From Sarea resinae (Eukaryota): 64,000 nucleotides of DNA. Below the pieces are notes generated by a model. The model had not been told where the DNA came from and did not search any database. It saw nothing but the letters and a program-made list of their open reading frames with translations. This document shows positions 54,844 through 61,308 of the stretch, one piece after another. Every line of letters begins with the position of its first letter. Position 1 is the first letter of the stretch. The DNA is taken from NCBI GenBank assembly GCA_026026165.1, contig JAPEUD010000074.1, positions 1 through 64,000 on the forward strand. Direction: 5' to 3'. The position numbers and the translations under genes were made by a program.

Positions 54844-55779
54844 ATGGCAAGGCCACGAATTAGATTTCTCTGCTTTCCCCTCCTCCTCGGTATGTCATTA
54901 TCCAATCGTCGGCATCTTCCCATCCCCAACTAACAGGCCCGTCCCAGCTCCACTCGCTACGGCCCAACAGTCTCCTACCACGTCCTCTCCAGAGCAAGTA
55001 GCTGCTGAAAGCCATCGACAACACGTCATCATCGCACATGGCCTAGTCATGGGCCTGGCATTTGCCGTGTTCTACCCGCTCGGCGCGCTGGTCATGGCCG
55101 TGTTCCGCTTCCGGGGCGTGGTCTGGGTGCATGCTGCAGTGCAGGCATTTGCATACCTCATGATAGTCGCTGGAGTCGGGATGGGTATCTGGATCGCAAG
55201 AGGCGAAGGCGAGGTATGTTTTCCATGTCCTATTGCCGCCCACTCTGGCTCGTTGATCTTTTGGTAATAATGCTGCTTGCGGACCTGCTATGATTCTGCC
55301 GCGGTCTATGCTAACGGAGAACCCCGCGCTGGGATGGTCAGTTGAATGCGTTTAATGGGCACCCGACCATTGGCATCATAGTATTCGGTCTCATGACCTT
55401 CCAGCCCTTCCTCGGTCTCGCCGCCCACAGGTCGCACGTCTTAGAGTCTTCGCCCTCATCCTCAGTCTCCTCCATATCGGCCCAAAAGGCCCAGCCAGCA
55501 CCCCTCAAGGCCACGGTCCCAACACACGTTTGGCTGGGTCGCGTGCTGATAATACTTGGCATTATCAATGGTGGTCTCGGATTGCAGCTAAGCGCGAACA
55601 CGACGAAGGGTGAGATCGCGTATGGTATCATTGCGGGGGTATTGGGGACGCTGTATCTGGTTGTTGGGCTCGGGGTTTGGTTATTTGGAAGGGGTAATGG
55701 GGAGAAGGTACAGAATGGCCAAGGACAAGGCCAGGAAACAAAGGCTGAAATGAGAAAGGGGGAGAATGTGGAGGTATAG
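54844..55779 (+). CDS. Cytochrome b561-like membrane protein with signal peptide (3 exons)
   Basis: Heme-ligand-like His in AHGLVMGLAF, WVHAAVQ, GHPTIG and THVWLGR; QPFLG and INGGLGL motifs. Introns restore the frame from ATG 54844. Confidence 0.8.
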
Positions 55780-56289
55780 GCCGTGTGCGACCAAGTCGGA
55801 AGGTGGGCTAGGTTTTGAGATATGATGTGCAATGGGATGAACCATAATGGATCGAAGAGCCGACCATGCAATGTTTGATGGCTTGCTGCTCATGACATCC
55901 ACATAAATCGGGTATTCAGGATAATTGGTGTTTAGGGGTCGTGTGGTCTCCGTTATCGCCTTGATATTTGACGGAGGGCCCCATATCATTTAAGTATTTA
56001 TAATGACGGCAGACGCTCGATTCAGCTCTTAGGTAGTCGGCAAGTTGGACGATTGATTCTAGACCAACAACGTTCCACAATTCAGCAGCCGTGTATTGAT
56101 TCCGGGCTAACGCATTGTTTCCAGAAGCAACGTTGATTGTATATTGCTTCTGATGAGCCATTTAGCAATACAGCCCTAGTGTATGCCTCCCAGAAAAGTC
56201 AAGTACAAACCTCGCCGGGACACCTGCTACGCCTTTCCACAACTTAAATCACTAGTACCCCATTCTCATAAGTAGCAAAATTTTCTGAT

Positions 56290-58367
56290 TTATTCCGTCT
56301 TTCCCGTGTGCTCGAGAATGGTCTTGATCATCTCATTACCCACGCGCGTCGCCTCGGCGAACCGTGGCGCGAAATACTCCTGGATCCCTTCGAACCGATC
56401 GCGGTAGCTTGCGAAGTCACCGAAACTGACGCAGTCGCTCCAGCCCTGTAAGCGTGTTCTCAGTAATATTCCCTGCAATCAGATCTCTACTAGCAACATG
56501 GACGAGATGAGATGAGAAAGTAACTTACCCTCGCGGCAAATGTGAACTCTAGGTCATCAGATCGGAAAGTGTTGTCTTCAATGGCAGTACGGATGACTTC
56601 GTCGAGGAGGTCGGGCTTGCGGAAGAGATACTCGGTCACACCGAGCCAAAGACGAAATAACTATATCCGAAAGAGTGATCAGCACGATGCCTCCTGACGA
56701 AGGGGACACTGCCCAGGCCCGTCTCGGGGGTAGGAACTAGCACGCAGCGGTACTTACAGGAGTGGAGCAAATCATATGGTCATAGGGAACAATGCCCAGT
56801 CTCCACCAACAGTCCACCATAGCCAGGAGACTAAGGTGATTGTTGGGCGTGCGCTCCTTCGGGATCTTGCCCAAGGAAAAGCGATCGAGAACCTCGTCTC
56901 GTAGCAGCAAATCCTCCTCGCTGCGGTCAGTCCCGAAGACCGCGGCGCCGGCGGTCCGGATGCGCTTCTCGAGCTCTTCACGATGGCCGCCGAGCATGAG
57001 CTTAAATAGCTCCGTCACGGATTCGGCGTACTGCCTGATCTGCTTCTTGGCGGCGGGATTAAGGATAGCGAGACCGGCGTAGACGTGCCATTTGTTCGAG
57101 TAGATTCGGAGCGTCACATTGATCTTAACATTCTCTATTCCGCCAACGTAGCGGTTGATCTCCCAGGGGAATTGGTTGTTGGCTCGCCAGGCCGTGCCCA
57201 TGCTAGACAAAAACATTCAGCTTCACTATCCGATACGACCTTGCTCTGATGTTCACCTTAGAAAAGCAGCATGAGTGACTGCTTGGGTGTCCGCCGTTAT
57301 CCGGTCATGTTTCTCCGCTGTGAGATAGACGTGCTTGGAGCGGAAGCAGGACAGGATCTTCTCGACCAAGTTGAATTTATCTTGAGAAGCTCGGTGTTTG
57401 ATAAGCACCTTCGCGCCATTCTAGTCAGCATGTATGCTCCGAACTTGTGTCTGAAAGATTCTGACCAGGGGCTGTCCCTTGGGATCTACGTTAGGTCCAT
57501 GAAGTGAGTGGCAAGATATAATCTCGACGTCTTCTGGAAGGTGCTTCTCGAATGCGGAGATCTCTGGTGCTTTGCAAGATGTCTGGCCACCAACTATAGC
57601 ACCCTGTTTCGTAGCTGGAAGTGCATGAGCATGTTACAGTCGATAGGTTTGGCTCAATGAGTAGTGATGGGCATACATGGTCCATATTGGGCGACTACTT
57701 TTTCTATAGTCTCAGCCTCAACACTATAGATTATGTAGTCGCTCGACCTTGACACGAGGTGGCCGTTCGGATAGATATGTACGTTCTTCTACAAGGACAC
57801 TCAGCATCCACTGATATAATCTATTTACAAAGTAACATTTTACCCTCGACTCAAACTCTACTTTCAGGTCCTCAAACTTGTCTGCTCTATCGCAAGCGTT
57901 GACCCTGGAAAACTCCAAACGTTGATCAGCTAACTTGGGCGTCGTAAGTAAAGCAGAATGAGTACGGGAGCATCTATTATCTTGGTTAGTGGCTGGCCAT
58001 AGCAAGACATCGAGCAGTAAAATAGAACAGAGCAGGTAATTGCGTTTCAGACAAAGTATAAAAAGGTAGCTGAGATGTTACATCATCGACAGCCAAGCGG
58101 CAAGTCTGGAACCAAAATGGCGACCAGACCCGCTGAATGGCCGTACTCGAGCCAAATGCACTCAAGTCATCATTGCAAAGGGAACAAGAAGATGAGAAGG
58201 GAAAGCTTACCATATGACAGTGCTCCAGATCTGTTTCAGGCCACCTGTACGGTTAATGCAGTGACTGAGGCGCTATTTCTTTACCTCCATCCAGCTTCAC
58301 TGATCCTCCTCGCATACATCTTCCCCATGTCCCCCATGCCAATGATCCCAACGGCAATATCCTCCAT
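56290..58367 (-). CDS. TYR1: Prephenate dehydrogenase (NADP+)
   Basis: Rossmann motif IIGMGDMG, GWR-VNACD across intron 1, GGQTSCK, HSLHGP, HDRITADTQAVTH and GGIENVK. Confidence 0.95.
58040..58178 (-). ncRNA. snR13: Box C/D snoRNA, snR13 homologue, inside TYR1 intron 1
   Basis: C-box ATGATGA (58167-58173), then TGAGTGCATTTGGCTCGAGT and AGCTACCTTTTTATACTTTGTCTGA, closely matching yeast snR13 as I recall it. Both guide elements are complementary to LSU rRNA AAGGUAGCCAAAUGC. Terminal TTGC/GCAA stem. Confidence 0.9.
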
Positions 58368-58822
58368 TGTAGGAAGAGAAAAGCAGCTTGACCGTCGAAT
58401 AGAATCGAGTGTCTGCTAATCTGCGGATGAGATCCAACGCACGGGTGAGCAAAGCACTGACCGCCTTCCTTTTGGGGTAATGCAGTCTGTGTCTCGAAGC
58501 TCGACGAGGCGTTGTCACTCTTGAGATTGACGCAAGATGATGAAGAAAGAAAATGAGGTACGAAGAGTAGGATGTTTGGCTTTCTTTGTAGTCAATTGTA
58601 AGCGAGAAAGCTCCTCACGGTAATTGCCGTTCGTTCGTTTCCGAGCTCGGCTCTCCAGCTTCCTTAAGGTATTGTTGTACCCTAAGCGACATGGAAAAAT
58701 TAGGGCACACTAACGGAATGACCTTTTTTGCCGACTGATCTTCAAGACGAACGAAGAGCGAAAGAGAGACGACGACGTCGACAACAACAAACCCCTCCAG
58801 GACCACCGACAAACGATTCAAA

Positions 58823-59530
<708 letters not shown>

Positions 59531-60069
59531 ATTACTGGAGGCTTTCTGGGTTATCTTTACTGGGGAGATTATTCGATGTTGGTGACAAAAACGAGAAGAA
59601 CGGCTTTGGCCTGGTCTTCATTTTTCTACCTTGTCACATGAGCTCGATGAGAATTGTCGGAATAGATAATCAAATCAGTCACAACATCAGTATCATTATT
59701 GTGCAGTATTCTGGGTAGATTGCTTGTAATATGCATGTGCCTGTGGATGCTTCCCTGAGCAGTCACGAGGAGATAATAGGGTAATCGCTTATCGTGTCTA
59801 AATATGTCATTTGGTCTTAGCAATACAATAGAGATCTTCATTCCAAGCCGGCCAGCAGTCTTGCGACACCCTCGGACAGGTGCAAGATTGGTTTGAAGCA
59901 GAAGCTGCTCCCAGATGCGGAGGAGAGCGATGCAGTCTCAAGACGTTGCGGCATAGTCCGTAGATTGACTGGCACTGAATGATCCCAAGAGACTACACTT
60001 TTAACACAATCACACATCCCACTCGCAACATCTTATCTCTACGCAGGAATCATTTCGTCCTCCCGTGCC

Positions 60070-61308
60070 ATGGAAGACACTAATCAATCTGTGGTTCTGA
60101 TGCTGGACTTGCCTGCGAAATCCTTGTGTGGGATAAATCTGCTCTCATTCACTACCAATCCCAAATTTCAAGGCATCAAAGGCCTACCTCCGGGTATCCA
60201 CTTCATTTTCACGGGCGCCACGAACTCGTTCTCTGTCCGTCATGGAGTCTGGTTCAGGATTGAGAGGCCCAATTCTACCGACCCCATTGATGTGGTTATC
60301 AAAAAGTGGGATGCTGAAAGGGAAGAGCTCGTTGACGAGACAGACAAAGCTGAACAGCTTCGCTGGAGGGCTAACCTTGGTACCATCTGGAATGACCGTC
60401 TCACGCCGTATCGTCAGTCCGCCGCCACTAAAGAGTCTCAGGAAGATGGAGCGCTTGTGGAGCAGAAGGGTGATTGGGGGCGTCTGTCTGACTTCGTCAC
60501 CTCTACGTTGCTTTCTAGGATCCTTGGAGGAGAATGGAATGACTGGAAAATTACCTCTGCCAGCTCGGCCAAAGAGGACATGGAGGATATTGCCGGTCTG
60601 TCACAAAGGAGTCCACCAAGCAGTATACAGCCTGAAAAAGTACTCAAATTCCTCCCCATCAACCTCAAGGAAACCTGGAGGGCCGGGGCGACTGGCCGAG
60701 AGCGAACGGAGGGTGCTCAGGACCGCTCTTGGGCACTTGGAAACGTCATCAGTAATTACTGCTCCTATGGCATAGCAGAGGAAGTCATCGGCGAGATGCA
60801 GTTCTCATTCCTGATGGTCCTGACCTTGAACAATTTCTCTTGTCTAGAGCAGTGGAAACGCATCCTCAGTCTAATGTTTACCTGCTCAAGTGCAATCGCA
60901 GAGCGCCCGGAGCTCTATATCCGCCTCTTAGAGTGCCTGAATCTCCAATTGCACCACCACGACGACATTGAAGGGGGCCTTCTGGGGTTGGAAGACGAGA
61001 CTGGGGTCATGATCCGGCGCCTGTTGAAGATCTTCCGCCGGAACTTGGATGACGTCTTTTCTCCGCCCCTACTCTCGGTGCGCAACTCTCTCGACGAACT
61101 TGAGGCCTTTCTTAAATCCGAATTTGATTGGTACCTCAGCGATTCATGGGTTCGAAGTGGCATGCTCGAGCTCGAGGACGGCGAACAGGTCGAGATGGAC
61201 ACCATCGATATGGAAGATGAGGATGAGACGGGCGAGTACGCGCCTGTCGTTTTGGATCTTGAGGCGCTGCCGAAAAGCATCCATGATTCTGATAGCGATG
61301 GTTATTAA
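60070..61308 (+). CDS. AAR2: Aar2 U5 snRNP assembly factor (single exon)
   Basis: GINLLSFTTNPKFQGIKGLPPGIHFI, DRSWAL, GEMQFSFLMVLTLNNFSCLEQWKR, and acidic C-terminal EYAPVV. Confidence 0.92.
   Translation: MEDTNQSVVLMLDLPAKSLCGINLLSFTTNPKFQGIKGLPPGIHFIFTGATNSFSVRHGVWFRIERPNSTDPIDVVIKKWDAEREELVDETDKAEQLRWRANLGTIWNDRLTPYRQSAATKESQEDGALVEQKGDWGRLSDFVTSTLLSRILGGEWNDWKITSASSAKEDMEDIAGLSQRSPPSSIQPEKVLKFLPINLKETWRAGATGRERTEGAQDRSWALGNVISNYCSYGIAEEVIGEMQFSFLMVLTLNNFSCLEQWKRILSLMFTCSSAIAERPELYIRLLECLNLQLHHHDDIEGGLLGLEDETGVMIRRLLKIFRRNLDDVFSPPLLSVRNSLDELEAFLKSEFDWYLSDSWVRSGMLELEDGEQVEMDTIDMEDEDETGEYAPVVLDLEALPKSIHDSDSDGY

Follow-up and report, generated by a model that had tools for sequence, protein, structure and literature searches.

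Does the first intron of a TYR1-type gene enclose another complete intron with a small nucleolar RNA (snoRNA) as its cargo, and if so, how are one snoRNA and one messenger RNA (mRNA) obtained from the same transcript? This question is raised by a 64,000-nucleotide (nt) stretch of Sarea resinae DNA (contig JAPEUD010000074.1, positions 1 to 64,000), hereafter the window, on the minus strand of which an earlier note had described an apparent intron within an intron and had proposed nested or recursive splicing. All coordinates given in that note agree with the minus strand of the window sequence. Our analysis points to two nested canonical introns, an arrangement termed a stwintron sensu lato, that would be spliced inside-out, with the snoRNA as the cargo of the inner intron and with mature mRNA as the product of a two-step pathway; we assign this reading a probability of roughly 0.62. 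The nested part of the proposal has stood, with an inner junction in RNA and inner signals conserved in 52 of 54 introns, whereas recursive splicing in the strict sense has been dropped, no donor being regenerated at the junction.

The features of the locus are collected in Table 1. Removal of the 380-nt intron in one piece joins GWR to VNACD, as the earlier note had read from the sequence and its translation, and four intronless relatives (L002-L005) read continuously across the position of the exon 1/exon 2 junction in the same way as the spliced form of the window. The inner intron begins 74 nt past the outer donor and ends 44 nt ahead of the outer branch motif, and in the unspliced sequence every element of the outer intron (donor, branch, and acceptor) is uninterrupted. 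Excision of the inner intron leaves a 143-nt remainder (74 + 69 nt), in which the outer donor, the branch CTGAT, and the acceptor CAG are all intact. The junction formed by this excision reads ..CATATG + ATGCTC.., in which no GT donor is regenerated. A further AG, the AAG at 57981, is also a candidate inner acceptor in the sequence, and two extra sites, a CAG ending at 58245 and a GTACTC starting at 57965, are both present in the window.

Table 1. Positions of the TYR1-type gene, its nested first intron, the intronic snoRNA, and the neighbouring gene in the window
Feature	Positions	Strand	Description
TYR1-type exon 1	58285..58367	-	ATG at 58367, ends ..GGA TGG AG; translation MEDIAV..GWR; intron 1 in phase 2
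Outer (external) intron	57905..58284	-	380 nt, GTAAAG..CAG; excision gives GWR/VNACD
Outer-intron 5' segment	58211..58284	-	74 nt, left after the inner splice; AGG TAA stop
Inner (internal) intron	57974..58210	-	237 nt, GTAAGC..TAG, snoRNA inside; RNA joint and conserved architecture
Inner donor GTAAGC	58205..58210	-	37 nt before the C box
Box C/D snoRNA, snR13 family (predicted)	58040..58178	-	about 139 nt by terminal stem TTGC/GCAA
snoRNA terminal stem TTGC/GCAA	58175-58178 + 58040-58043	-	sequence
snoRNA C box	58167-58173	-	sequence; invariant or nearly so in 37 representatives
snoRNA D' guide	58145-58164	-	letter-for-letter match to the snR13 consensus
snoRNA C' box	58080-58086	-	sequence; invariant or nearly so in 37 representatives
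snoRNA second conserved element	58064-58074	-	nearly invariant; follows the C' box directly and lies 12-23 nt away from the D box
snoRNA D box	58047-58050	-	sequence; invariant or nearly so in 37 representatives
Inner branch site CTAAC	57985..57989	-	A at 57986; 61 nt past the D box, 12 nt ahead of the inner AG
Inner acceptor TAG	57974..57976	-	site used, as given by the boundary of the RNA joint
Outer-intron 3' segment	57905..57973	-	69 nt; has the outer branch and outer acceptor
Outer branch CTGAT	57925..57929	-	21 nt ahead of the outer AG
Outer acceptor CAG	57905..57907	-	closes the 380-nt intron
TYR1-type exon 2	57844..57904	-	G GTC AAC GCT TGC GAT, VNACDRADKF...
TYR1 intron 2	57789..57843	-	ordinary neighbouring intron; unspliced in one RNA contig
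RPS14-like ribosomal protein gene	58818..59400	+	divergent neighbour; open reading frames, GT..AG joints in RNA

One public run contained part of this stretch, a wood-decay metatranscriptome whose contigs, assembled from short reads, were mapped on positions 56700-59400. The results revealed a joint at 58211/57973 that skips the 237 nt from 58210 to 57974, with CT..AC ends on the plus strand that correspond to GT..AG on the minus strand. The contig bearing this joint (200 nt, depth 7.22) consists of 58313..58211 (103 nt, 0 mismatches) followed by 57973..57877 (97 nt, 1 mismatch), and neither the outer donor (58285/58284) nor the outer acceptor (57905/57904) has been spliced in it. Such a molecule would be expected when the inner intron leaves first and the outer intron is still in place. 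Because the boundary of the joint falls at TAG 57974, that site, and not the AAG at 57981, is the inner acceptor; the earlier note had offered both. A joint that skips the full 380 nt was also found, in a single contig of depth 2.9 whose shorter side measures 27 nt and which was accepted at a likeness threshold of 85%; with so short a side and such a threshold, this contig may stem from a related organism. The RNA is hence not confined to the 58284-57905 junction, the inner junction being present as well.

A third contig (125 nt, depth 8.4, positions 57782-57906 on the minus strand) spans exon 2, the unspliced intron 2, and the start of exon 3. Because TYR1 intron 2 is unspliced there, either precursor RNA or DNA of this organism must be present in the run. 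The joined form could on that account be a piece of DNA from a strain in the sample whose genome does not contain the 237 nt, either by deletion or by absence of the inner unit. A metatranscriptome may contain DNA, and relatives with a short snoRNA-free intron at the intron-1 position do exist (L001, L013, L016, and L018), but the skipped part has exact GT..AG ends, and 12 nt ahead of its AG lies a branch site. In addition, the contig otherwise departs from the window at 1 position in 200 nt and yet would miss a snoRNA that is kept in every long orthologous intron. A genomic origin of the joint is thus very improbable.

Conservation of the inner signals was examined among relatives from a scan of metagenome contigs, in which 347 stretches matched and 168 encoded a relative; the best 80 of these 168 were kept. 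A homologue of the snoRNA region was found in 68 of the 80 loci. The other 12 comprise three that are truncated after exon 1 (L022, L049, and L053, whose contigs end just past this exon), four with no intron at the place of intron 1 (L002-L005), and five with a short intron. Four of the latter (L001, L013, L016, and L018) have snoRNA-free introns of 48-79 nt; the fifth, L021, was counted as having a short intron without the snoRNA and was not extracted, its exon matches being incomplete. The short snoRNA-free introns sit at the same codon position as the nested intron. By means of exon matches, 75 introns were extracted, the window included, of which 59 were unique and 54 of these long (303-537 nt); L027 and L056, in which the snoRNA is present and the contigs end before exon 2, were left out of this set.

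All 54 long unique introns begin with GT, end with AG, and contain the snoRNA. The inner donor was sought 30-80 nt before the C box, and the inner branch 50-75 nt past the D box, with an AG 9-20 nt beyond it; chance was gauged by 200 dinucleotide shuffles, with counts likewise taken out of 54 introns. The donor was present in 54/54 (shuffle mean 3.4, maximum 11), a count that includes the donor form GTTCGT, which entered the pattern only once it had been noticed in four sequences of a single group, and without which the donor is found in 50/54. The branch with its AG was present in 52/54 (shuffle mean 3.5, maximum 8), and donor and branch/AG occurred together in 52/54, compared with a shuffle mean of 0.17 and a maximum of 2, although the sequences are related and hence are not independent draws. 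In nearly all introns, the layout runs from a consensus donor, 32-79 nt ahead of the C box, to a branch 53-74 nt past the D box and an AG 9-18 nt further on. A second branch lies near the terminal AG in 50 of the 54 orthologous introns. Two features that the pattern did not require recur among 37 representatives, namely a G before CTRAY (33/37) and a G at position -1 of the inner donor (29/37).

The flanks of these introns fall into 36 clusters between which no similarity is detectable. Because the flanks form 36 mutually dissimilar groups, the inner signals have been retained while their surroundings changed. It was conceivable that the inner signals are random matches to short motifs and that only the 380-nt intron is ever used; the motifs are short enough to co-occur in a single sequence of 380 nt, and the snoRNA has no Rfam match at the gathering score. 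This explanation is, however, almost certainly wrong, given that the inner junction is present in RNA and that the joint occurrence of the signals exceeds its chance expectation so far across 36 flank clusters. The alignment of intron 1 across relatives, which the earlier note had suggested as a check, thus confirms that the inner signals are not a product of chance, and the complete set of inner splice signals that it had seen around the snoRNA has been upheld in both sequence and RNA.

The same 37 representatives served for all statistics on geometry and coding. The distance from the end of the D box to the inner branch A has a median of 58 nt (range 53-74, standard deviation (sd) 5.3), that from the inner donor to the C box a median of 42 nt (range 32-79, sd 9.0), and the inner intron itself a median length of 241 nt (range 225-298, sd 13.9). 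The outer parts vary more widely, with medians of 55 nt for the 5' segment (range 38-215, sd 33.3), 56 nt for the 3' segment (range 26-93, sd 16.0), and 109 nt for the remainder after the inner splice (range 74-274, sd 39.4). The inner unit is therefore tightly held, whereas the outer segments float. At 74 nt or more in every representative, the remainder has an ordinary length for a fungal intron. The median of 58 nt agrees with the position rule for splicing-dependent intronic box C/D snoRNAs, a fixed short distance between snoRNA and branch; reportedly, Hirose and Steitz placed the mammalian optimum in 2001 at about 50 nt from the snoRNA to the branch point. Thus, the geometry of the inner intron is that of an ordinary snoRNA-hosting intron, and its tight spacing between D box and branch probably serves the assembly of the small nucleolar ribonucleoprotein (snoRNP).

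The outer segments of some relatives have a further peculiarity. Nine loci (L020, L023, L030, L047, L050, L055, L069, L077, and L078) have a long 5' segment of about 90-215 nt, and in the same nine a strong additional branch motif, with a CAG behind it, lies 20-40 nt before the inner donor. In this group, the extra branch and CAG may belong to a third intron unit or may act as a rival acceptor that is unproductive. The counterpart in the window is weak, a TTAAC..CAG ending at 58245.

The strength of the outer donor was considered as an argument for the order of splicing. A G at position +5 was found in 16 of 37 outer donors and in 9 of 17 donors of the ordinary intron 2. A weak outer donor was accordingly rejected as an argument for inner-first removal, the donors of intron 2 being similar; if anything, the donor of the outer intron resembles those of the gene's other short introns.

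With regard to coding, a transcript from which only the inner intron has been removed meets a stop inside the remainder in 37/37 representatives, and within two codons in 33/37. Because retention of the remainder gives a stop in every case, the enzyme needs the outer intron to be removed as well. In the window, splicing from the outer donor to the inner acceptor would keep 69 nt, which are in frame and open and would amount to a 23-codon insertion. As a conserved isoform, this combination was rejected, the 3' segment being a multiple of three in 9/37 and open in 3/37.

The earlier note had also considered the use of all sites, including the two extra ones, which would leave micro-exons of 34 and 8 nt and insert 14 codons in frame into the nucleotide-binding fold. 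The arithmetic holds in the window, where the two micro-exons add up to 42 nt with an open frame. The inner-spliced contig, however, is unspliced through both 58284..58245 and 57965..57905, so that the RNA reads through both extra sites. Among the representatives, a consensus donor occurs in the 3' segment in 0/37, an extra branch with AG in the 5' segment, under the pattern applied, in 2/37, and both together in 0/37. The scheme would also demand a first intron of 40 nt and an exon of 8 nt, both of which are below the usual fungal limits. The extra acceptor and donor are accordingly real as letters of the window and are not conserved as sites, and the 14-codon insertion has not been borne out; we consider such an isoform barely credible.

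The cargo of the inner intron was then characterized. Judged by its boxes, terminal stem, and guide, the snoRNA is a predicted box C/D snoRNA of the snR13 family. In a permissive Rfam scan of 181 bases, snR13 (RF01223) ranked first with 20 bits, compared with a gathering score of 47, and the model aligned in two separate pieces, the middle part of the snoRNA being different. No match was obtained with Rfam at E up to 1 over positions 55000-61000, nor at the gathering score over the whole window. The guide at 58164-58145 is conserved in the alignment of the 37 representatives. The second conserved element, at 58064-58074, lies at a greater distance from the D box than a standard methylation guide would, and it may correspond to the extra base-pairing of snR13 with ribosomal RNA (rRNA).

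The snR13 gene of yeast is an independent gene and is not intronic. For snR13 itself, van Nues et al. report 'extra base-pairing' to rRNA in the portion of their article that concerns it (PMC3116282). In Table 1 of Liu et al. 2009 (PMC2780460), CD1 of Neurospora crassa is listed as an intronic snR13 homologue of 125 nt with a D' guide for 26S-Am2242. The window snoRNA shares with snR13 and CD1 the box C/D type and the same D' guide stretch, and with CD1 the intronic location, but it differs from the Rfam model of snR13 (RF01223) in scoring well below the threshold. According to the section of Liu 2009 that deals with this point, intronic snoRNAs of N. crassa keep constrained distances to both splice sites (PMC2780460).

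On the basis of these findings, the favoured pathway can be set out as follows. The inner intron (58210..57974) would be excised first, and its lariat would be debranched and trimmed to yield the snoRNA. The 143-nt remainder, which is shaped like a normal short fungal intron, would stay behind in the transcript until a second splicing event removed it and joined GWR to VNACD. The inner-spliced RNA would then be a precursor of the mature mRNA and the order of removal inside-out, and we infer that the snoRNA matures from the inner lariat. The inner intron would be recognized first because intron definition in fungi favours 'the smallest intron possible', as stated in the relevant part of the stwintron literature (PMC8469720).

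Several observations weigh against this pathway. Excision of all 380 nt in a single step is conceivable and would release the snoRNA as well. The RNA evidence consists of a single contig, built from short reads of a single metatranscriptome run, and contigs of this kind cannot give the order of the steps, the amounts, or the ends of small RNAs. Because the run holds precursor mRNA or DNA, a partly spliced form is unsurprising and is silent on its own fate. The fully spliced junction comes from one contig of low support, perhaps of another organism, so that the link between precursor and product is inferred. Its depth of 2.9 is below the 7.22 of the inner-only form, which would fit a dead-end isoform too. 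Finally, the snoRNA lies below the Rfam gathering threshold (20 vs 47 bits).

Taken singly, the exons of the window gave sub-threshold matches only, with 13.5 bits for PDH_N against a cut-off of 26.5 and 17.5 bits for NAD_binding_2 against 21, and the exon-1 peptide matched NAD-binding Rossmann families weakly. The intronless relative L004 has a frame of 430 residues that is above the Pfam cut-offs for PDH_C (29.4 bits vs 22) and for NAD_binding_2, and it shows 79% identity over 150 residues to the large exon of the window. Because L004 passes these domain cut-offs and resembles that exon, it is reasonable to regard the gene as a putative prephenate dehydrogenase of the TYR1 type, an assignment carried by the sequence of this relative. 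A PDB sequence search with the large exon returned chance-level matches only, and a comparison with the protein atlas gave no usable match (best score 0.76).

The TYR1-type gene and the RPS14-like gene stand head-to-head, with about 450 nt between their start codons. Of the 54 loci whose upstream sequence reaches 1200 nt or more, 40 have a divergent RPS14-like match upstream of TYR1. Such a match is absent upstream in the snoRNA-free loci L002, L005, L013, L016, and L021, and it is also absent in one snoRNA-bearing group (e.g., L023, L028, L031, L047, L055, L069, and L077). In the RNA contigs, the RPS14-like gene has GT..AG joints at about 58892-58971, 59043-59146, and 59309-59376. Many third-position differences at high depth occur across 58890-59380, from which it follows that RPS14 transcripts of many other fungi map there.

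The RNA with only the inner intron removed may also be largely a dead end, degraded by nonsense-mediated decay (NMD) or retained in the nucleus, with its stop right after codon 28. The mRNA would then come from a minority of transcripts, through either one-step splicing of the outer intron or a slow second step, and splice choice or the efficiency of the second step would set Tyr1 output apart from snoRNA output at a locus that shares its promoter region with a ribosomal protein gene. The alternative offered by the earlier note, a splice choice that trades snoRNA output against functional Tyr1, is likewise possible. Among the TYR1 RNAs of this organism, the inner-only form is indeed the one with the best support in the run (7.22 vs 2.9), but contig depth is not expression, and the unspliced intron 2 shows that precursors were sampled. 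The stop in the retained remainder is found in 37/37 lineages; a phase-2 intron that starts with GTAA, GTAG, or GTGA, however, gives an immediate stop automatically, and no design is implied. The head-to-head RPS14-like gene in 40/54 loci would fit transcription tuned to ribosome production, and human snoRNA host genes are described as widely making NMD-sensitive variants in the part of the work that treats them (PMC4233243). Against this, the outer donor, branch, and acceptor are intact and the remainder is of normal length, so that the second step has no visible block. Such uncoupling is compatible with inside-out splicing to mature mRNA, from which it differs only in how large a fraction of the molecules goes through the second step, and we regard it as possible but doubtful.

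A related and equally tentative idea is that the two introns form a two-tier decoupling device. The inner splice would occur on essentially every transcript and would supply the snR13-type snoRNA at the rate of ribosome synthesis. Removal of the outer intron would be a separate, slower, or regulated event, and its failure would lead to the stop and to decay.

The nested arrangement has close parallels in known systems. Among the stwintrons of Pezizomycotina described by Flipphi, Fekete, and co-workers, the sensu lato type is a canonical intron within a canonical intron, as defined in the part of their article on terminology (PMC8469720). The same source, where it treats nested canonical introns in Pezizomycotina, describes inside-out excision with an intermediate that has lost the internal intron (PMC8469720). 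The TYR1 case is similar in that two U2-type introns are nested in a protein-coding gene of a filamentous-ascomycete-like genome and each has its own donor, branch, and acceptor. It is further similar in that an RNA exists without the internal and with the external intron, and that the mature frame needs both to be removed. In contrast to stwintrons sensu stricto of classes D, L, and A, the internal intron of TYR1 interrupts no external donor, branch, or acceptor; because no external signal is interrupted, these classes are inapplicable and the sequence does not impose an inside-out order. The TYR1 internal intron also differs from stwintrons in carrying a conserved snoRNA with tight geometry that has been kept over at least 36 flank groups. 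Recursive splicing through a ratchet point or zero-length exon is different again, since the second step in TYR1 would reuse the original outer donor.

Polycistronic snoRNA hosts of fungi have been described as undergoing nested, stepwise, and recursive splicing in the relevant parts of Luo et al. 2013 (PMC3596301) and Donovan et al. 2016 (PMC5033589). As far as these parts go, the hosts resemble TYR1 in that snoRNA introns are removed in several steps from one region and that intermediates are seen, in their case in expressed sequence tags and in RNA sequencing (RNA-seq) data. The hosts treated there are non-coding, however, and their introns abut one another (with exons of zero, one, or negative length) or lie inside a snoRNA, so that splice sites are regenerated or destroyed by a neighbouring splice. 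TYR1, in contrast, is protein-coding, its snoRNA intron lies wholly inside an intact intron, and no site is regenerated.

For human snoRNA hosts, alternative splicing with NMD has been proposed to uncouple the snoRNA from the host mRNA in the portion of Lykke-Andersen et al. 2014 that addresses this issue (PMC4233243). By that account, the likeness to TYR1 is that the splice releasing the snoRNA intron can yield a product whose reading frame stops prematurely. The difference is that the unproductive form of TYR1 would also be a possible intermediate that a second splice could rescue; NMD sensitivity of the TYR1 form would be hypothetical. A literature search, mostly outside subscription journals, returned no description of a snoRNA-bearing internal intron in a protein-coding gene, nor of the TYR1 case.

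Regarding its origin, the nested design could go back to a self-contained snoRNA intron that landed inside an older short intron, which some relatives have kept in snoRNA-free form. The snoRNA-free introns L018, L013, L016, and L001 were aligned to all nested remainders and scored 43, 26, 24, and 19, respectively. The corresponding means for shuffled queries were 45.7, 27.4, 26.4, and 14.2 (maxima 59, 40, 36, and 24), so that chance was not exceeded and no conclusion follows from this comparison.

The finding extends a known kind of nested intron and introduces no new principle; what makes it valuable is how deeply it is conserved, how tight its geometry is, and how clear its cargo. Nested fungal introns have been studied mostly as evolutionary curiosities, and the reason why inner signals persist has often been unclear. 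The inner intron of TYR1 has an obvious cargo, a conserved predicted guide for rRNA methylation at a fixed distance from the branch. For annotation, gene models of this locus would show one long intron and would hide both the snoRNA and the inner splice, and RNA-seq pipelines would call the inner junction a frame-breaking "alternative isoform". The locus offers a natural system for asking whether the place of the branch point matters for box C/D snoRNP assembly in filamentous fungi, a dependence known from mammals, and whether a long fungal intron must shorten from inside before intron definition can remove it. It likewise allows one to ask whether a two-step splice lets a protein-coding host set its snoRNA and mRNA outputs apart. 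If the decoupling idea were true, the output of an enzyme of the tyrosine pathway would be set independently of the output of a snoRNA that is made from the same primary transcript.

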